Below, piece after piece: positions 1-5,668 of a stretch of DNA of 5,668 nucleotides. The stretch's first letter is position 1. Each line of letters opens with the position of its first letter. Origin of the DNA: a virus; IMG/VR virus record IMGVR_UViG_3300032116_005938, positions 1 through 5,668 of that record, one strand, 5' to 3'. The notes below the pieces were generated by a model. It was not told the origin of the DNA and ran no database searches. It was given only the letters and a program-made list of their open reading frames with translations. A program made the translations under genes and the position numbers.

Positions 1-1029
1 TGTCTTTCCTATAGTTCCTTCTTTATCTATTAGATCAGATGGTACTGCATAAATATCATTAGCTTCTGGTTGAAGTACCATAAGCTTAAGTGGTTCACAA
101 GCATCAAGATCACCCACTGAACCAGCAGCTATAAACATACCTGTTGTAATCATACCACTCTGCATAGCAGGTCTCATATACTCATAAGTAAGATCCATCT
201 TTGGAGCAATCCCTCCTTCCTCATGAAAGAAATAAGTACAAGGACCACCTACACCATTTGTTGGATCTTTTTCAAAAGAGGTACCTGTAAGAATAGATCT
301 ATTTCCTTTATAAGTATCTCTTCCATTTATTCTTACTTTGATACGCTGCTGCCAAGAAAATACTTTATCAGGATCACTTGGTCTATACCAAGCAGTATGT
401 TCATTAAGAAATGTACGATACTCTGTAAGCATACGCCAAGTACCTTTCTCAGATATATAATCTTTTAGACTCGCTCCCATTTTAAGAACAGCACCTTCTT
501 CAAAGACCCACATGTTAATTAGCTTAGCTGCATGAAAATAAGAGGAAGCAATCTGACGTTTCTTTAAAATAGCAGAGTGTCTATAGTGTAGCTCAGCTAA
601 CTGTTCATAAAGAGCCATGTGATACTGAGCATCTCTTACCTTAGCAAAGTCAAACCTCTTTTCTTCTTTGTCATAAATAGGCAAGAAGTTTAACCACATA
701 TAGTAGTCTCGCGACAAATACCAAGTTTTCGTGACATTATTCACGACACTTTTTACTATTATACCACTTCTGCATCTTTTCTTTTGCTCATTCCAATAGT
801 TTATAAAGTCTTTTGTCTTTATAGGAGCTGGGCAATAGAAACCTTGTTGCTGAAACTTTTTAGCTTCAGCATTAAATATTAAAGAAGTTTCGTCAAAATC
901 ATATTGACCAGGTTCTTTAAATAAAGAAAGAACAAAGTCTCTAAACTCCTCTCTGCTATAGAAAGTAGTTAGATCCCATTGACCATTTTGATAAGTTGGT
1001 ACTTCTATATAAATATTAGATAAGGTCAC
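1..1029 (-). CDS. terL: Terminase large subunit, N-terminal ATPase domain (partial; the C-terminal part lies beyond position 1). Proposed GTG start at 1029..1027.
   Basis: My own minus-strand translation is open for all 343 codons from 1029 to 1. It reads VTLSNIYIEVPTYQNGQWDLTT...RDYYMWLNFLPIYDKEEKRFDFAKVRDAQYHMALYEQLAELHYRHSAILKKRQIASSYFHAAKLINMWVFEEG...GGPCTYFFHEEGGIAPKMDL...TTGMFIAAGSVGDLD...IGKT. There is a deviant Walker A-like KKRQIASS at 564..541, of the K-x-x-R/Q-x-G/A-x-S type with an N-terminal lysine. A Walker B / catalytic Glu-like YFFHEEGG lies around 234..211, and a coupling-motif-like AAGSVGD follows. The frame is closed by TAA at 1041..1039. There is no in-frame ATG before the conserved core, so GTG at 1029 is the only canonical start. 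Confidence 0.85.
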   Translation of the reverse strand, partial: MTLSNIYIEVPTYQNGQWDLTTFYSREEFRDFVLSLFKEPGQYDFDETSLIFNAEAKKFQQQGFYCPAPIKTKDFINYWNEQKKRCRSGIIVKSVVNNVTKTWYLSRDYYMWLNFLPIYDKEEKRFDFAKVRDAQYHMALYEQLAELHYRHSAILKKRQIASSYFHAAKLINMWVFEEGAVLKMGASLKDYISEKGTWRMLTEYRTFLNEHTAWYRPSDPDKVFSWQQRIKVRINGRDTYKGNRSILTGTSFEKDPTNGVGGPCTYFFHEEGGIAPKMDLTYEYMRPAMQSGMITTGMFIAAGSVGDLDACEPLKLMVLQPEANDIYAVPSDLIDKEGTIGKT

Positions 1030-1249
1030 TGCTTCTTGTTATTTCATGTATCATTTCTACGTCACCTTTTGATTTATGCAAAAGATCTATTAGAACGTTT
1101 AAATGTTTAGCTCTAAGAATATTATTACCCTCATAACCATTCCAATAGTTTACGTATAAGTCTCTAGGTATGGCACTCCATACATCTGCAAACGGATTGT
1201 AATGAAATACCCAGTCGTGTAAATAGCCATTTGTAATTTCTTCTTTCAT
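1016..1249 (-). CDS. Hypothetical small protein (77 aa, aromatic-rich: WVFHYNPF..W..IPR..YVNYWNGY)
   Basis: ATG-initiated ORF between tRNA-Leu and terL. It is preceded by an A-rich leader (AAAAAAATAAAC-ATG). Its TAA stop at 1018..1016 lies 11-14 nt inside the proposed terL start. I recognise no family. Confidence 0.6.
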   Translation of the reverse strand: MKEEITNGYLHDWVFHYNPFADVWSAIPRDLYVNYWNGYEGNNILRAKHLNVLIDLLHKSKGDVEMIHEITRSSDLI

Positions 1250-1265
1250 AGTTTATTTTTTTTAG

Positions 1266-1347
1266 TGCCCCATAAGAGACTCGAACTCTTATACCTTGCG
1301 GCACCAGATCCTAAGTCTGGCGTGTCTACCAATTTCACCAACGGGGC
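1266..1347 (-). tRNA. tRNA-Leu (anticodon UAG, at 1313..1311), class II, no encoded CCA
   Basis: Hand fold of the minus strand gives GCCCCGT-TG-GTG-AAATTGGTAGA-CAC-G-CCAGA-CTTAGGA-TCTGG-TGCCGCAAGGTAT-AAGAG-TTCGAGT-CTCTT-ATGGGGC-A. The acceptor stem is 7 bp with one G-U pair. The D stem is 3 bp with the Leu-type AAATTGGTAGA loop. U33 and G37 are present, the variable arm is 13 nt, the T loop is TTCGAGT and the discriminator is A73. Confidence 0.9.
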
Positions 1348-1352
1348 TATAG

Positions 1353-1423
1353 TTGCGGGGCCTAGAGTCGAACTAGGATTTCTGGGTTATGAGCCCAATG
1401 TGCTACCGTTACACCACCCCGCG
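1353..1423 (-). tRNA. Initiator tRNA-fMet (anticodon CAU, at 1391..1389), no encoded CCA
   Basis: Hand fold gives CGCGGGG-TG-GTGT-AACGGTA-GCAC-A-TTGGG-CTCATAA-CCCAG-AAAT-CCTAG-TTCGACT-CTAGG-CCCCGCA-A. It has the C1xA72 mismatch. It has three consecutive G-C pairs (GGG/CCC) next to the anticodon loop. The 5' end CGCGGGGTGG and 3' end CCCCGCAAC are the same as in E. coli tRNA-fMet. These are the established bacterial initiator hallmarks. Confidence 0.88.
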
Positions 1424-1436
1424 ATAATTATTTAAG

Positions 1437-1531
1437 CTGTAGGGGGAGGATTTGAACCTCCAAATGAGCAGGGACTCCCCGCTCCCGCCTCCGAGACTGG
1501 GAGGTGCGTCTGCCAATTTCGCCACCCTACA
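1437..1531 (-). tRNA. Atypical class II tRNA-like gene (95 nt), isotype undetermined. The anticodon position reads GUC, but the loop is non-canonical.
   Basis: Hand fold gives TGTAGGG-TG-GCG-AAATTGGCAGA-CGC-A-CCTCC-CAGTCTC-GGAGG-[CGGGAGCGGGGAGTCCCTGCTCATTT]-GGAGG-TTCAAAT-CCTCC-CCCTACA-G. The acceptor stem is a perfect 7 bp (U1-A72). The T arm is canonical and the D arm is Leu-type. The anticodon loop at 1499..1493 has A33 and U37. The 26-nt variable region forms an 8-bp helix (GAGCGGGG/CCCTGCTC) with a 3-nt loop. Nucleotide 1 directly abuts the TAA stop of the upstream CDS. Confidence 0.6.
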
Positions 1532-2044
1532 TTATTGATCATATGCTAAGTTCTGGCCACCACGTACTTGACTTTGCTGTTCTTCCTCAAGATCTCTGAG
1601 AGTTCCTTTGAAACTCTGACGTATAGCTTCAAACTTTGATGCTGCGTTAACAAGTGCCGTAATGTTACCATCTCTACCATGCTCAATCTCTGTGGTCTCC
1701 ATATATTTAGCAAGACGGTCAAGCATACTTTTAATTCCCGCATATGCTCGGTACGTTGGTGTTTCATAAAGTTTACGACACATCGTAAGCCCATTGACAA
1801 TAAGATCTTCATCAGTTGAAAACTCAGCACCAACCTCCTGAAGTATAATTTCTTCTTTTTCTGTTTCTGGTACATCAAAGAATGGGTTTAAATCTGGATT
1901 AGGACAAGTCATATAAAACAGATACGCATATATCTGTAAATATTCGGTAGGATATCCGATCATGATATCATGCAAAAACTTCAAAGTAAAACAGTGTTCA
2001 CTTGCAGTTACTTGTCCGTTTTGTATATCAAATAGTCTAATCAT
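1532..2044 (-). CDS. Hypothetical protein, 170 aa; possible terminase small subunit by position only
   Basis: ATG-initiated ORF with no competing frame of similar quality. It is the last protein gene before the tRNA cluster and terL. The C-terminal part is helical and charged (..KFEAIRQSFKGTLRDLEEEQQSQVRGGQNLAYDQ). I recognise no motif, so the functional guess rests on synteny alone. Confidence 0.75.
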   Translation of the reverse strand: MIRLFDIQNGQVTASEHCFTLKFLHDIMIGYPTEYLQIYAYLFYMTCPNPDLNPFFDVPETEKEEIILQEVGAEFSTDEDLIVNGLTMCRKLYETPTYRAYAGIKSMLDRLAKYMETTEIEHGRDGNITALVNAASKFEAIRQSFKGTLRDLEEEQQSQVRGGQNLAYDQ

Positions 2045-2660
2045 CGTTTGTCTTTATATTGTAATAATAAGAGTCTGTATCTTCACTCACCCATTTATCA
2101 GATACTGTTTCTACACTCTTTAGTTCTGTATCAACTTTTATTTCTTTTGGTTCAATTGGAAAAGATTTTGTTATCCAGTTAGAGTCTTTCCAAAAGATTC
2201 TATTGTTAGGTTGGCATAATAAATAACCATCATCTGCTACAAGTATATGCCCACACTTATAATCACTTGGTTCATCTGAGTATGAGTTCTTGTACCAGTC
2301 TACTGTAAATAAATAGGTAGCCCATATTTTAGAACCATCTCTTAAAACTACTTGGCACTTCTTCTCGTATAAATAGTCATAAGTAATAACTGATACGTTC
2401 TCACTAAAACAATCCCATAGTTGTTTAAAATGAAAAGGTACATCTGAAACAGGTTTATGTAAATATATTTCACTAATAGGTACTCTTGATCTTAACATAC
2501 CATAGTCTGTCATCAAGTGAAAGGTAAGTATCTTTCCAGAGATTGATTGTACCCCAAATAAATAAGCAGAATGAAATATATCATGATCACTCGGATCTTT
2601 TGTAAAGTATGATTGCCTTACAAGACATTTCAGATTATCTATGTTATGATTTAAAATCAT
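2037..2660 (-). CDS. Hypothetical protein, 207 aa (aromatic-rich, motif ..LLCQPNNRIFWKD..)
   Basis: ATG-initiated ORF. It is translationally coupled on both sides: a TAATG junction with the nuclease gene at 2660, and an 8-nt overlap with the next gene at 2037-2044. I cannot assign a family with confidence. Confidence 0.8.
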   Translation of the reverse strand: MILNHNIDNLKCLVRQSYFTKDPSDHDIFHSAYLFGVQSISGKILTFHLMTDYGMLRSRVPISEIYLHKPVSDVPFHFKQLWDCFSENVSVITYDYLYEKKCQVVLRDGSKIWATYLFTVDWYKNSYSDEPSDYKCGHILVADDGYLLCQPNNRIFWKDSNWITKSFPIEPKEIKVDTELKSVETVSDKWVSEDTDSYYYNIKTNDD

Positions 2661-3493
2661 TAACTCTTTGTCTTTAGTTTATGACGGTTATCTTCTAACC
2701 AATGCAAACAAGAAATAACTTCTTGCTTTAAATAAGGAAGGTCATACTGCACAATATCTTTTACTATTGGATCACCATTTGTATCAAGAGCAGTGATTGG
2801 ATTACCAAACTTATCTTTGTCTACTTCTTCAAACATAATATGATGAATTGTTAGACTTCCAAACTTTAACTTTGGGTTGTGCTTCAGTATAATAAACATG
2901 TAAAGACTTAACTGTAATGCATAGTGATTAAGATTACAATCATCAAGGTGAGTAACTGGTGCGGTCATCTTTTGAGTAATGCCTTCCCAGTTTGTATATC
3001 CTTCTACTTTAATTTCTTTGTTTGTCTTATAATCAGTAATGTGTACTTCTCCGTTTACTACTTCTACCAAATCTGACTGACCACATATACCAGCTGACTT
3101 TAGATAAACCATATGTTCTGGATACACACCATTAGAAAGCTTTTGGTTTGGAGAATATTTTATTCCTTCTCTTTCTATTGGTTTATACACAGGTATAACA
3201 GTACCATGTCTCTCCATAGTCTCTACTTCACATATGTCTCTTTCTCTACAGTTATGATACCAGGTTCCAAGAGTTGTTGCACGATTAGCTTCTGATTTCC
3301 ATGCATCCTTTATTTCTTCAGGAGTCATACCATACCATTTGCTCTTCTTGCTCTTACTTGATTTCTCTGCTATAATATCTGCTTCAAAAGGTTGTTTGAA
3401 GTTGGATATAAAAGAGGTTACACTTAACCAATTAATACCATCGGGTTCTACACTACTGTACTTGTGATGTTGTGGGGTGAATGTAATTATCAT
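2660..3493 (-). CDS. PD-(D/E)XK superfamily nuclease (RecB/Cas4-like phage exonuclease type)
   Basis: The motif order is typical of the family. It has N-terminal HHKY...LSVTSFI, then GTWYH, then an acidic core ..GQSDLVEVVNGEVHITDYKTNK (the D ... D-x-K signature). The RecB-family Q-h-x-x-Y motif follows as YALQLSLYMF. The Cas4-type C-terminal CX2CX5C cluster is absent. Confidence 0.85.
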   Translation of the reverse strand: MIITFTPQHHKYSSVEPDGINWLSVTSFISNFKQPFEADIIAEKSSKSKKSKWYGMTPEEIKDAWKSEANRATTLGTWYHNCRERDICEVETMERHGTVIPVYKPIEREGIKYSPNQKLSNGVYPEHMVYLKSAGICGQSDLVEVVNGEVHITDYKTNKEIKVEGYTNWEGITQKMTAPVTHLDDCNLNHYALQLSLYMFIILKHNPKLKFGSLTIHHIMFEEVDKDKFGNPITALDTNGDPIVKDIVQYDLPYLKQEVISCLHWLEDNRHKLKTKS

Positions 3494-3819
3494 ATACCTA
3501 GTTTACTGTTTAACATATCCTCTTCGCTCTGATCCATCTCTGCTTTCCAATGACCCTTTGGACATTCTGAACTAAGTGATCTGGTTTTAAATTTTAAAGA
3601 GCATCCGCATCCACCAAGTTCTTGATTGCAACATGGAGTAGTGCCAGGTACCATACATCCTTTATCATTCTCTGTATAAAGATCACAAAAGAAACATATC
3701 TTCATTCTTTCTTCTGCAATGGCTTCAACATCTTCTTTCTTAAATACAGAATTAGTGATCCCCTCCAGTATCTGGTTCTTGCTCTTCCATATTCTGATCA
3801 CGTTGTCTCGTAGACTCAT
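3490..3819 (-). CDS. Cysteine-rich small protein (8 Cys), putative metal-binding
   Basis: The Cys pattern is C-x2-C ... C-x7-CC-x6-CGC ... C-P-x-G-H-W (..KICFFCDLYTENDKGCMVPGTTPCCNQELGGCGCSLKFKTRSLSSECPKGHW..). The ATG at 3819 overlaps the upstream gene by 68 nt. The only alternative canonical start is Met39 at 3705. The stop overlaps the nuclease start as ATGA at 3490-3493. Confidence 0.72.
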   Translation of the reverse strand: MSLRDNVIRIWKSKNQILEGITNSVFKKEDVEAIAEERMKICFFCDLYTENDKGCMVPGTTPCCNQELGGCGCSLKFKTRSLSSECPKGHWKAEMDQSEEDMLNSKLGI

Positions 3820-4183
3820 ATGCTGTTCTTTTGTGCATTTTAATAAATTCAGCTCTTTGGTTTTCTTCTTCCATGATCTTCTTTAGATTCCTAAGATCGT
3901 AGAGAGTCTCTGCTGTTTTATAACGAGCTGTCATCTGCTGTAAACCTTTTTGTCTGTTGTTCTCTTCAAACTTTTCAAGCATTTCTATCTTGTCATCTAA
4001 CTTCCAATGTTTAATTGTAAAGTCACCAAGATTTGTTAAATGTACTCTTGAGTGTTTGAGACTACTCAGACTTTTTCTTACTTCTTGCCAGTAGTAGGAG
4101 ATAATAGCTTCGGTGGCTTCTTTTGAAAGATTTGTTTCCTTGGCTACTTCTGGTATAAACTCTTTTGATTTTTTAGGACGCAA
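3752..4183 (-). CDS. HU/IHF-like DNA-binding protein (N-terminal HU-like half plus a charged helical tail); TTG start
   Basis: Residues 9-58 (FIPEVAKETNLSKEATEAIISYYWQEVRKSLSSLKHSRVHLTNLGDFTIKH) follow the HU pattern seen in [45 protein letters not shown]. The codon at 4183..4181 is TTG. There is no in-frame ATG or GTG before the conserved region. It overlaps the upstream gene's end by 11 nt. Confidence 0.65.
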   Translation of the reverse strand: MRPKKSKEFIPEVAKETNLSKEATEAIISYYWQEVRKSLSSLKHSRVHLTNLGDFTIKHWKLDDKIEMLEKFEENNRQKGLQQMTARYKTAETLYDLRNLKKIMEEENQRAEFIKMHKRTAYESTRQRDQNMEEQEPDTGGDH

Positions 4184-4535
4184 CGCATAAGAATTTATAA
4201 TCCAGTAATATATTTCCAGAAGAGCTAACCTTCATTTCAGGATTAATATAAATTTTCTTCTTATTCTTTCCTTCCTTTTTTATCAGATTCTTTTTCTCAG
4301 CCTTGGTCAAACAATTACGCACAGACTGGGTTGAGGAAAATATCTTTTTATCAAAAGCTTTATTACAAAAACTTGTTAACTCTTGGTCTCCTTCTATAGC
4401 AAGTAGTGTGAGGCAGTTTAAGTCTGCCTCACTTACAGGTATATCATACAGATAGCAGTGCGTAAGAATCTGATACTTGACAACCTGCCAAGTATTCATT
4501 CTTACTCTTTTATCTACCTGATTAACTATTGCCAT
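4173..4535 (-). CDS. Hypothetical protein, 120 aa; possible winged-helix DNA-binding protein
   Basis: ATG-initiated ORF joined to the GNAT gene by TAATG at 4533-4537. The segment ELTSFCNKAFDKKIFSSTQSVRNCLTKAEKKNLIKKEGKNKKKIYINP resembles a recognition helix plus a basic wing. This is a weak, pattern-level call. Confidence 0.65.
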   Translation of the reverse strand: MAIVNQVDKRVRMNTWQVVKYQILTHCYLYDIPVSEADLNCLTLLAIEGDQELTSFCNKAFDKKIFSSTQSVRNCLTKAEKKNLIKKEGKNKKKIYINPEMKVSSSGNILLDYKFLCVAS

Positions 4536-4966
4536 TATAAATCTATTTTAAAGCTCATATAATCTTCCCCTGTCTTACCCCAGTTTTTGTAGAGTAATAT
4601 AGGTTCTGCTCCCAGATTTTCAAAGATGTGCCAGGATGCTCCCTTTCTTGCTTCTCCTATAAGATGTTCGTACTTCATATCCTTTGCCCACTCTAAGACG
4701 GTAGAGACAAGTTCATATCCCAAACCTTTTCCTCGGTGTGCCGGTAGTACGGTAAAACTATCTATATGAGCTACGTTGTCTGAACTCCAAGTCATAATAG
4801 CTTCTGCCATAAGTCCCTTCTTATCTCGGAACCATATACCTTGACATTCTTTATTTTCTTGGAGCATGAAAAGTTTATACTTCTCATCCCAGCGTAGTTC
4901 TTTGGGATGCTCCCGTTCAAAGACAACTGTTTCCTTGTAATCTCTGAGCTTATAGAGCGTATTCAT
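4535..4966 (-). CDS. GNAT-family N-acetyltransferase, 143 aa
   Basis: It carries the canonical acetyl-CoA-binding motif A (Q/R-x-x-G-x-G/A) in FTVLPAHRGKGLGYELVSTVLEWAK. The length and beta-alpha pattern are typical of GNAT. Its ATG directly abuts the upstream TAA (TAAATG at 4964-4969). Confidence 0.9.
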   Translation of the reverse strand: MNTLYKLRDYKETVVFEREHPKELRWDEKYKLFMLQENKECQGIWFRDKKGLMAEAIMTWSSDNVAHIDSFTVLPAHRGKGLGYELVSTVLEWAKDMKYEHLIGEARKGASWHIFENLGAEPILLYKNWGKTGEDYMSFKIDL

Positions 4967-5218
4967 TTATTTTTCTTTTTTAAGACTTCTAGAAGTTTTT
5001 GGTTCCTCGTCTTCTTCCTCTTCTTTTGGAGGAGCTGTAATTTGGGCTATGAATGAAAGAGCCTTAAGTTCCTCAGCTCTACCCACAGCTAAAGCGGTGT
5101 TTAGTTCCTGAAGCTCAAGCTGTACTCTCTTAACCTCAATTTGTTCTTGGAAGAAGTTAATGACCTCTTCTTTGCTTGGGGCCTTTTGTTCTTCTTGTTC
5201 TAAATTTTCTGTGCTCAT
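4967..5218 (-). CDS. Hypothetical acidic coiled-coil protein, 83 aa
   Basis: ATG-initiated ORF. It has a heptad-like central helix (IEVKRVQLELQELNTALAVGRAEELKAL) and an acidic tail (KEEEEDEE). It sits immediately upstream of the GNAT gene. I recognise no family. Confidence 0.6.
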   Translation of the reverse strand: MSTENLEQEEQKAPSKEEVINFFQEQIEVKRVQLELQELNTALAVGRAEELKALSFIAQITAPPKEEEEDEEPKTSRSLKKEK

Positions 5219-5237
5219 TGTTCTTTGGTTTTAATTA

Positions 5238-5555
5238 TTAAAGACTAATATCCCCCGCGTCCGTATCAGACGGACCCGCGTGATAAAGTTGAAACATAGT
5301 TAGGAATTCTTCATAGGGAGTATCAATAACATAAGTATCCCCATGGTCGGTAAATATAGTCGTACAATTATACACCATCTCTTCCTCGTCATCCGTGGTG
5401 AGCTTACAGGCAATAACTACATCTATATGAAAAGCAAAAGACAGCCACTTACCTTTATCAGGTATACCCATTAGATCAGCTTTCTCTATATCTATCGTGT
5501 GGCAATGGATGTTACAAGTGTGTATCATAGACTTTGGTTTTATGTCAGGGTACAA
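5238..5555 (-). CDS. Hypothetical protein, 105 aa (start is TTG at 5555, or ATG at 5528 giving 96 aa)
   Basis: This is the first ORF after the non-coding upstream region. The codon at 5555..5553 is TTG, and the first ATG is codon 10. The 3' end carries a GC-rich hairpin. I recognise no family. Confidence 0.65.
   Translation of the reverse strand: MYPDIKPKSMIHTCNIHCHTIDIEKADLMGIPDKGKWLSFAFHIDVVIACKLTTDDEEEMVYNCTTIFTDHGDTYVIDTPYEEFLTMFQLYHAGPSDTDAGDISL
5256..5280 (-). other. GC-rich stem-loop embedded in the last codons of the 105-aa gene
   Basis: The plus strand CGCGTCCGT-ATCAG-ACGGAC-CC-GCG gives 6 contiguous bp plus 3 more across a 2-nt bulge. It is built from GC-rich codons (GCG GGT CCG ... 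ACG GAC GCG GGG) that are unusual in this AT-rich block. On the mRNA it is followed by U/A-rich sequence and the TAA stop. Confidence 0.35.
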
Positions 5556-5583
5556 TTAAATATACCTAAAAAGTTTAAACTCT

Positions 5584-5591
5584 CCAAATTT
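5584..5591 (-). promoter_or_regulatory. Candidate Bacteroidota-type -7 promoter element (TAAATTTG matches TAnnTTTG)
   Basis: The minus strand reads ..AATAATAAGTAAATTTGGAGAGTTTAAAC.. about 29 nt upstream of the TTG start at 5555. This is the only sizeable non-coding stretch in the window. I found no convincing -33 TTTG at the proper spacing. Confidence 0.25.
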
Positions 5592-5668
5592 ACTTATTAT
5601 TACCTATTACTCTATACCCCCATTTATCAACAGCTGTGCATAACCCCCCCCGGTTGTATATTTCCGGT

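Follow-up and report, generated by a model that had tools for sequence, protein, structure and literature searches.

The window examined here, a stretch of 5,668 nucleotides (nt) from the IMG/VR virus record IMGVR_UViG_3300032116_005938 (positions 1 to 5,668), is an AT-rich phage fragment in which every gene lies on the minus strand. Its positions 1437-1531 (-) raise the question of what a gene is that has the shape of a transfer RNA (tRNA) and joins an aspartate-type anticodon loop to a leucine-like class II body, with A33 and U37 where an elongator tRNA has U33 and a purine at 37. We use the label X for the RNA family that includes this gene. With high confidence, X is a conserved, functional, host-derived family of tRNA-like RNAs that phages captured from chromosomes of Bacteroidota; the comparative data suggest, at a confidence somewhat below even, that it is an aminoacylatable look-alike of tRNA-Asp whose work lies outside normal decoding.

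Read on the minus strand, the gene is UGUAGGG-UG-GCG-AAAUUGGCAGA-CGC-A-CCUCC-CAGUCUC-GGAGG-(26 nt)-GGAGG-UUCAAAU-CCUCC-CCCUACA-G, with the following parts (bp, base pairs):

1437-1531, minus strand: X gene, 95 nt from U1 to discriminator G73 (ARAGORN; covariance model R1; covariation)
1525-1531, minus strand: 5' strand of the acceptor stem, UGUAGGG, forming 7 bp with CCCUACA
1437-1444, minus strand: 3' strand of the acceptor stem, CCCUACA, and discriminator G73 (at 1437)
1506-1522, minus strand: D arm with a 3-bp stem and a class II, Leu-like loop, GAAAUUGGCAGA
1488-1504, minus strand: anticodon arm with a 5-bp stem, CCUCC/GGAGG, and a 7-nt loop, CAGUCUC (1499-1493)
1462-1487, minus strand: variable region of 26 nt (single-sequence fold, RNAalifold)
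1445-1461, minus strand: canonical T arm, GGAGG, loop UUCAAAU, CCUCC

In the loop, A33 is position 1498, G34-U35-C36 are 1497-1495, U37 is 1494 and C38 is 1493; the helix of the variable arm has 8 bp (1484-1477 with 1473-1466), one of them G-U, and closes on a triloop AGU. C74 follows G73 and CCA is not encoded. A 7-bp acceptor stem, a 5-bp T stem and the elbow nucleotides G18 G19 and U54 U55 C56 complete a regular cloverleaf, and the single-sequence fold returns the same arms at -41.5 kcal/mol (z = -2.1, weak evidence if taken alone). Over positions 8-26 the gene is alike to the neighboring tRNA-Leu at 16 of 19 nt, two of the three differences making up a compensatory pair. The sequence thus bears out what a first-pass annotation had read from it, namely A33, U37, the 26-nt variable region with its 8-bp helix, the Leu-like D arm, G73 and U1-A72.

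Gene finders disagree about this RNA. When run on the window, ARAGORN calls a tRNA-Asp(gtc) at 1436-1531 (-), and our covariance model R1 scores the gene at 96.5 bits (E 1e-21); the Rfam tRNA model (RF00005, gathering threshold 29 bits) does not report it even at E<=1. Since the same Rfam model does report both neighboring tRNAs, the gene is truly atypical. Rfam 15 holds no family for X.

Homologues were sought in two ways. A conserved open reading frame (ORF) of 170 amino acids (aa), whose stop codon directly adjoins the 5' end of X, served as synteny anchor for the phage group and retrieved 80 related loci from IMG/VR, in 7 of which ARAGORN calls the same atypical tRNA-Asp. Aligned, these relatives have invariant G34-U35-C36-U37-C38, have A, G or U at position 33, and show compensatory changes in every stem. 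A degenerate pattern, TGTARRGTGRYGRAAYTGGYARAC, which covers the acceptor 5' strand and the D arm, fixes positions 1-4 and does not include the anticodon, matches more than 116 IMG/VR viral contigs, from which 79 unique full-length phage sequences were parsed. Model R1 finds X in most loci with the closest 170-aa proteins (~75% identity or more), always downstream of the ORF, and also finds copies outside the pattern that carry the same signature. That signature consists of U1-A72, G2-C71, U3-A70, G73, the Leu-like D arm and a loop Y-N-G-U-C-U-C; we count as X those sequences that have it together with a 7-nt loop ending in U35-Y36-U37-C38, a canonical T arm and an R1 score above 55 bits. The window gene has all of these features, and true tRNA-Leu scores at most 52 bits with R1.

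The same pattern matches more than 120 genome contigs listed, many of them chromosomal and of megabase size, and their named taxa are overwhelmingly Bacteroidota. X-bearing taxa among the matches listed belong to Cytophagales, Sphingobacteriales, Chitinophagales and Ignavibacteria (the last with one metagenome-assembled genome, MAG), and include Pedobacter and other Sphingobacteriaceae, Aquirufa, Cyclobacteriaceae, Marivirga, Fulvivirga, Ekhidna, Marinoscillum, Hymenobacter and Chitinophagaceae. Several genomes have 2 to 5 tandem copies. Because the bacterial variable regions measure 39 to 114 nt, ARAGORN calls none of these copies; the Rfam models likewise report nothing on bacterial X, and the tRNA model misses the long-arm members too. 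C74 follows G73 as in the adjacent true tRNA genes, and some copies encode the full CCA (Pedobacter X2, several Cyclobacteriaceae). Pedobacter has two tandem paralogues, X1 and X2, the latter with U4-A69 in place of A4-U69, a compensatory change, and with CCA encoded after G73. With the variable region left out, the core of the window gene is identical to Pedobacter X1 at 61 of 69 positions (88%), a similarity that points to a Sphingobacteriaceae-like source or host and would make the gene a host-range marker. In Pedobacter X1 itself (L229 5140-5247 and others) the anticodon stem is CCUCC/GGUGG, its central U-U mismatch being kept across Pedobacter species, unlike the perfect CCUCC/GGAGG stem of the window copy.

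That the cloverleaf is under selection is where the comparative evidence is decisive. Among 38 diverse homologues, 99.9% of the alignment cells are paired, 13 of 20 pairs are double-changed and 0 of 500 shuffles attain the covariation score; all four stems covary, double changes occur at 5 of 5 anticodon-stem pairs, 4 of 5 T-stem pairs covary, and so do the D pairs 10-26 and 11-25. RNAalifold on 8 homologues gives the cloverleaf with the variable-arm helix and compensatory changes in 13 of 27 pairs. Homologues thus support the anticodon stem and the extra-arm helix, where the first-pass annotation had asked for a test of compensatory substitutions, and its view of a functional, selected tRNA-shaped gene rather than random sequence is upheld. 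A 5-bp stem closing a 7-nt loop, with double changes at all five pairs, also disposes of a shifted anticodon (a U-turn at U35, giving CUC or UCU) and of a 9-nt loop.

The positions that matter to the loop behave differently from one another. In 118 unique bacterial sequences, taken from the matches listed and aligned to R1, U1, G2, U3, C71, A72 and G73 occur without exception and A70 in 117; U35, C36 and C38 are likewise 100% conserved, followed by U37 (96%), G34 (92%) and U33 (88%). Position 34 is C, A or U in ~8% of these copies: C34 occurs in orthologous single copies of Ekhidna, Hymenobacter and relatives, arrays in Marivirga mix G34 with A34, and one copy has U34. The 79 phage sequences have the loops CUGUCUC (33), UUGUCUC (16), CUGUUUC (6), UGGUCUC (4), the CAGUCUC of the window (2) and rarer others; U37 is found in 75 of them and U33 in 65, the remaining 14 (18%) being non-U33, as compared with 12% in bacteria. 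Positions 32-33 are the most variable among the nearest relatives of the window, 33 swapping A and G and 32 swapping C and U. We take U37 to be the family hallmark and A33 to be lineage-specific drift. As such, the homologues answer the question of conservation in two halves, yes for U37 and no for A33, and the proposal that A33 is a designed feature that collapses the loop on U37 does not survive. An A33-U37 pair leaving a GUC triloop is rejected in any case, position 33 being mostly U and C32/C38 being unable to pair. That the loop looks like an Asp loop whose positions 33 and 37 have traded places is a lineage-specific coincidence, for the family consensus CUGUCUC differs from the Asp loop only by A37 to U. 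The mixture of identity signals noticed in the window, an Asp loop, C38 and G73 on a class II, Leu-like body, is on the other hand kept across hundreds of homologues.

What is not conserved is the variable region, which spans 6 to 114 nt in the whole family and 6 to 102 nt among the unique phage sequences. Of the 77 unique phage variable regions of at least 15 nt, 76 close with a helix of 4 bp or more, compared with 40% of shuffled arms, and the arm sequences of different phage clades are unrelated. Long variable domains, in hosts and phages alike, begin with an outer helix and continue with a second, short helix that covaries, an internal loop GAUAAA/CUAAC that may resemble a UAA/GAN module, and an inner hairpin often with GGGUUGACCAC; the window gene lacks the structured GAUAAA/CUAAC module. 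Hence the 26-nt arm, once compared with tRNA-Sec as a specialization, is better described as a stripped-down host domain. Pairing of a GACCAC motif of the variable domain with positions 7-11 was considered and dropped, as it shows no covariation. Two phage loci (L029 2867-3035 and L032 3519-3687) have a ~20-nt hairpin, GGGUUGUCUCAGCAUGACCCC, inserted in the D loop of X, with a second UUGUCUC motif, as if a binding site had been duplicated.

In bacteria X has a setting of its own. Most loci have a TAnnTTTG box, the Bacteroidetes-type promoter, ~42 nt upstream, so the bacterial copies are transcribed on their own, behind a short leader. Clustering of flanking ORFs yields one dominant neighbor, a divergent regulator of ~156 aa, followed by sufB and sufC. 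In NCBIfam this regulator is nearest to AsnC (184 bits, below the curated equivalog cut-off of 227), with LrpA next (76 bits), and among the 99 loci whose upstream sequence extends to at least 900 nt it is divergent from the first X copy in 74, its start lying a median of 158 nt away. Phage copies of X have the conserved 170-aa ORF or a PhoH-like gene on one side and, on the other, a small ORF and then the genes for the terminase large subunit and portal. Often X is the only tRNA-like gene there; the copy in the 636-kb megaphage LR756504.1 is part of a tRNA array. None of these phage neighbors (170-aa ORF, small ORF, terminase large subunit, portal, sometimes PhoH) is tRNA-related, and a phage protein partner was discarded as a candidate on that ground.

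The reading that we favor, and would put just short of an even chance, is that X is a host-derived tRNA-Asp look-alike that can be aminoacylated and acts outside normal decoding, and that phages took it up in slimmed-down form. Phage X would be transcribed within its tRNA array and matured like a tRNA by RNase P, 3' trimming and CCA addition; tRNA-like maturation is presumably what the position in tRNA arrays (the window, LR756504.1), C74 and the CCA of some copies reflect. A class IIb synthetase would then charge the RNA, the candidate being aspartyl-tRNA synthetase (AspRS), which would read G34-U35-C36, C38, G73 and G2-C71, and charged X may act as a carrier of its amino acid or as a ligand of an enzyme, away from the ribosomal decoding cycle. 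For the phage, the slimmed host gene would have the benefit of raising the supply of X RNA during infection. Of the possibilities offered by the first-pass annotation, that of a working tRNA which is charged or decodes in an unusual way comes nearest to this reading.

Conservation is strict at the sites that a synthetase reads, that is the discriminator, the first base pairs and loop positions 35, 36 and 38, and change is tolerated at 32-34. The identity core of AspRS comprises U35, C36, C38, G73 and G2-C71, G34 being weaker, and the strength of these elements is reportedly the subject of the tRNA-Asp identity studies of Puetz et al. 1991 and Nameki et al. 1992; the order of conservation in X, with U35 and C36 above G34, matches these strengths. 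X combines this set with an Asn/Gln-type U1-A72 and a conserved pyrimidine at 37. A weakly constrained position 33, a pyrimidine 37 and a hypervariable domain are hard to reconcile with routine codon reading. Moreover, C34, A34 or U34 on an unchanged body would shift the codon read from Asp to Glu, which together with U37 argues against routine decoding. X is also not simply the tRNA-Asp of the phage, because a canonical one coexists with it: L158 has a tRNA-Asp (1306-1378) with G1-C72, A37 and the loop UUGUCAC at the same locus as X, and in L140 a 75-nt tRNA-Asp call adjoins X. The notion of X as the only tRNA-Asp of a phage is thereby rejected; as to the only tRNA-Asp of the host, a review that includes Bacteroidetes does not list Asp-GUC as missing (PMC8007984).

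Several observations weigh against a charged, non-decoding X. Most members keep U33-G34-U35-C36 in place, a strong first-position pair of C36 with G might let a tRNA with U37 decode GAY, and three phage members that carry A37 (L149, L190 and L103) could decode. The ~8% replacement of G34 should weaken recognition by AspRS, and G10, an identity element of E. coli AspRS, is kept as G by only about one bacterial copy in two. That U1, G2 and U3 never vary is in part a product of the search, since the pattern that seeded the homologues fixes positions 1-4; R1 matches found without the pattern agree with U1, G2 and U3, and pair 4-69 covaries. Finally, a protein other than an aminoacyl-tRNA synthetase could be what reads the conserved acceptor and loop.

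Comparison with known RNAs shows how X departs from each. Like bacterial tRNA-Asp(GUC) it has the loop Y-U-G-U-C-N-C with G34, U35, C36 and C38, and G73 and G2-C71, and the X-type loop contains U33-G34-U35, the motif that TGT needs for queuosine insertion. tRNA-Asp, however, has A37, G1-C72 and a variable loop of 4-5 nt, whereas X has U37, U1-A72, a class II D arm and a long arm, and its position 34 varies between species; the window gene accordingly agrees with tRNA-Asp in GUC, C38 and G73 and departs from it in class I body, G1-C72 and A37. U1-A72, although it had been counted in the AspRS identity set, does not belong there; the canonical tRNA-Asp of L158 has G1-C72. With the class II tRNAs (Leu, Ser, Tyr) and tRNA-Sec, X shares the 3-bp D stem with a Leu-like loop and a helical extra arm, and with Ser and Sec also G73. 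It differs from class II tRNAs in the anticodon of a class I isotype and in lacking the A73 that LeuRS and TyrRS need, so that invariant G73 and the anticodon GUC set it apart from tRNA-Leu and tRNA-Tyr. It is not tRNA-Ser either, despite G73, the anticodon not being a serine one and the arm ranging from 6 to 114 nt, a range over which arm-dependent recognition by SerRS cannot be a conserved feature. The covariation-supported geometry is 7/5, as opposed to 8/5 in tRNA-Sec; neither 8/5 nor the 9/4, 8/4 or 9/3 of tRNA-Sec and allo-tRNAs applies, and the loop CAGUCUC has no UCA anticodon. ARAGORN makes no transfer-messenger RNA (tmRNA) call at the site and Rfam gives no match, which excludes tmRNA and YrlA; tRNA-Sec, allo-tRNA, tmRNA, Y-RNA and every Rfam family were rejected for want of a match.

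There are also tRNA-shaped RNAs with other duties, at least some of which can be charged. tRNA-Other of B. cereus is a tRNA-like small RNA proposed or shown to act outside decoding. The S. aureus tRNA-Gly that serves pentaglycine bridges is, like X, tRNA-shaped and rule-deviating, and is likewise proposed or shown to work outside ribosomal decoding (PMC8007984). Their deviations lie in the T arm, the contacts to EF-Tu or a different anticodon arm, they have no sequence relation to X and, unlike them, X is spread over a phylum and its phages.

The strongest alternative makes X a genuine, if oddly built, tRNA-Asp isoacceptor, which would be charged with Asp and read GAC and GAU on the ribosome, and whose phage copy would supplement Asp decoding. 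It has in its favor the placing of GUC as nucleotides 34-36 in a loop of 7 nt, an L-shape scaffold that is canonical throughout, the ARAGORN call, the location of X in tRNA arrays, and U33 and G34 in 88% and 92% of the bacterial copies; a G-C pair at codon position 1 could also lessen the need for a purine at 37. Still, we consider it unlikely, since decoding tRNAs near-universally have a purine at 37 where X has U37 in 96%, position 33 is repeatedly lost, the C34, A34 and U34 variants at orthologous loci would misread Glu codons, variable domains reach 114 nt, U1-A72 stands against the G1-C72 of the coexisting tRNA-Asp, and the Rfam tRNA model gives no score at E<=1.

Rather unlikely, judged on sequence features and taxonomy, is a more specific role, in which X would be given over, outside decoding, to carrying the amino acid during tRNA-dependent synthesis of asparagine via GatCAB. 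The Asp loop (G34-U35-C36, C38) and G73 would allow loading with Asp even by a discriminating AspRS, the Asn-type U1-A72 would let GatCAB amidate Asp to Asn, and U37, in hosts together with the bulky variable domain, would bar Asn-X(GUC) from the ribosome. Transcription of X would follow asparagine supply under control of the divergent AsnC-type regulator; in E. coli, asnC controls asnA. AT-rich phages would carry a minimal X to obtain more Asn in hosts without AsnA and AsnB, and the phage GUU subfamily would be loaded with Asn by AsnRS, so that both routes would end in Asn-X. Indeed, tRNA-Asn of the pathway of non-discriminating AspRS (ND-AspRS) and GatCAB has U1-A72 and G73 like X, one phage X subfamily is of GUU type (CUGUUUC), and U1-A72, the pair recognized by bacterial GatCAB (PMC4206432), is present as this substrate determinant in the window gene and the family. 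Unlike tRNA-Asn, most X have C36, U37 and C38 (not A37 and A38) and a class II body.

The distribution of GatCAB offers a lead, not a result. GatCAB is present in Pedobacter (which lacks AsnA and AsnB), Cytophaga, Cyclobacterium, Marivirga, Chitinophaga, Spirosoma, Ignavibacterium and Melioribacter, and absent from Bacteroides, Porphyromonas, Prevotella, Flavobacterium, Cellulophaga, Maribacter and Sphingobacterium (PMC4206432, Table S1). This split parallels that between taxa with and without X among the matches listed (120 X-bearing genomes), which contain no named Flavobacteriaceae, Sphingobacterium or cultured Bacteroidales, species-rich though these are; the exceptions are three environmental MAGs labelled Bacteroidaceae or Bacteroides, of uncertain taxonomy. 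The carrier role has its weak points: the correlation is drawn from a sequence pattern and the matches listed, long variable arms might be incompatible with GatCAB, and the scheme names no step for release or use of Asn.

Less probable again is that X stays uncharged, as a mimic that titrates or regulates AspRS, GatCAB, TGT or a stringent-response factor, or acts via the AsnC-type protein. Loop and acceptor are conserved while decoding rules are broken, X is divergently paired with an amino-acid-sensing type of regulator, the structured module of bacterial variable domains (GAUAAA/CUAAC, GGGUUGACCAC) could bind a partner, and the hairpin with a second UUGUCUC in L029 and L032 would suit such binding. 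Against this, the strict G73 and CCA-ready 3' end suggest use of the acceptor end, the window copy is conserved yet lacks the structured module, and no partner protein co-occurs with X in phages. A mimic of the anti-Shine-Dalgarno sequence was considered on account of the CCUCC strand of the anticodon stem, which occurs in Pedobacter, the window and Cytophagales, and was dropped as many phage stems differ (CCACC, CCAUC, GCAGG).

An anti-defense device in phages, either a decoy or a cleavage-resistant substitute facing an anticodon nuclease, with A33 and G33 as escape mutations, is improbable. Phage tRNAs that evade nucleases by anticodon-loop changes are documented, and X resembles them in being phage-encoded, within a tRNA array and non-consensus in its anticodon loop (PMC10264068); positions 32-33 are also the ones that vary most among the nearest relatives of the window. 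But the loop of X is inherited from a host family, unlike the phage-specific changes in those tRNAs (PMC10264068), U37 and the rest of the signature being no phage innovations. Non-U33 is about as frequent in bacterial chromosomes as in phages, the 32/33 changes in the window clade are transitions, as drift predicts, and no defense gene is linked to X. The idea of a decoy invented by phages, raised in the first-pass annotation, is weakened accordingly, since the presumed host phylum has X on its chromosomes as a gene that possesses a promoter and occupies a conserved locus. Finally, a pseudogene or decaying tRNA-Leu duplicate, suggested by the D arm (16/19 nt), has next to no chance given the compensatory changes that all stems show across hundreds of homologues, the syntenic position kept in the phage group, host chromosomal orthologues, and a Leu-like D arm that is a family trait.

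We found no description of the family in the full-text literature, beyond possibly DNAVirus_1850, a csRNA from a 2023 IMG/VR screen. As described there, it is a structured RNA with 27 sites, one of which (1/27) overlaps an ARAGORN tRNA-Asp (PMC10690425), the behavior expected of X, of which ARAGORN calls short-arm members only; compared by this description, it may be the same family, for which the portion of that report concerned with it gives no bacterial homologues, signature or context (PMC10690425). If our interpretation holds, a phylum-wide tRNA-shaped RNA gene with its own promoter, often in several copies, has been overlooked, and phages from roughly 100-kb crAss-like relatives to the 636-kb megaphage have captured it repeatedly. 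X, which retains all that a tRNA requires for processing and probably for charging, would then be a natural tRNA scaffold retired from decoding, with a bearing on the use of aminoacyl-tRNA outside translation, and some 'phage tRNA genes' would be tRNA-like RNAs that were taken from hosts and have duties other than decoding. Given the link to an AsnC-type regulator, a part played by X in the supply of amino acids (asparagine) can be tested directly, and for annotation it matters that short-arm phage copies are now mislabelled tRNA-Asp or tRNA-Asn.

The surroundings of X in the window are as follows, ARAGORN giving three adjacent minus-strand genes in the order X, tRNA-Met(cat) (1352-1423) and tRNA-Leu(tag) (1265-1347):

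1532-2044, minus strand: conserved 170-aa ORF, function unassigned, its stop codon abutting the 5' end of X
1353-1423, minus strand: initiator-type tRNA-Met(CAU), 13 nt downstream of X (ARAGORN; Rfam, 60.8 bits)
1266-1347, minus strand: tRNA-Leu(UAG), last gene of the array (ARAGORN; Rfam, 55.6 bits)

The 170-aa ORF stands upstream of X in 80 loci and has no match in Pfam, PHROG or NCBIfam. The tRNA-Met at 1353-1423 (-) combines a C1xA72 mismatch with an anticodon stem that has three G-C pairs at its base, and the order X then initiator-type tRNA-Met recurs in loci L003, L009 and L010. Upstream lie genes for a protein with an HU/IHF-like DNA-binding domain (3752-4183, -) and a GNAT acetyltransferase (4535-4966, -), the latter also found in 17 related loci. 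Among GenBank phages the window has no close relative, the matches being a distant crAss-like exonuclease and one megaphage X copy only. At ~5254-5282, in AT-rich surroundings at the 3' end of an ORF (5238-5555, -), an imperfect inverted repeat rich in GC, CGCGTCCGT...ACGGACCCGCG, may act as a terminator or regulatory hairpin.

Related phage loci hold further unusual tRNA genes. GUU-type X copies of 75 nt with a 6-nt variable loop, called tRNA-Asn by ARAGORN, occur in L154 (2192-2266, -) and L156 (1176-1250) and retain U37-C38 and the class II D arm. Calls of 88 nt for tRNA-Asn(GUU) or tRNA-Thr(UGU) with long extra arms and normal loops (L140 9966-10053 (-), L186 2634-2721, L319 19243-19330 and 19336-19423) suggest further non-canonical tRNAs in Bacteroidota phages, these isotypes normally being class I. 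ARAGORN also returns 'tRNA-???' with two-base anticodons (ct, tt) and odd anticodon loops in related phage loci and the megaphage array (L072/L073 839-914, L319 17254-17329). In L132 (7214-7350, -), a 33-bit match to the Rfam tRNA model has a 68-nt insertion that replaces or interrupts the anticodon-arm region, and L045 (1813-2169) encodes a phage tmRNA with the tag GSTKTEGRVISFRPTYATALAA beside X and four tRNAs.

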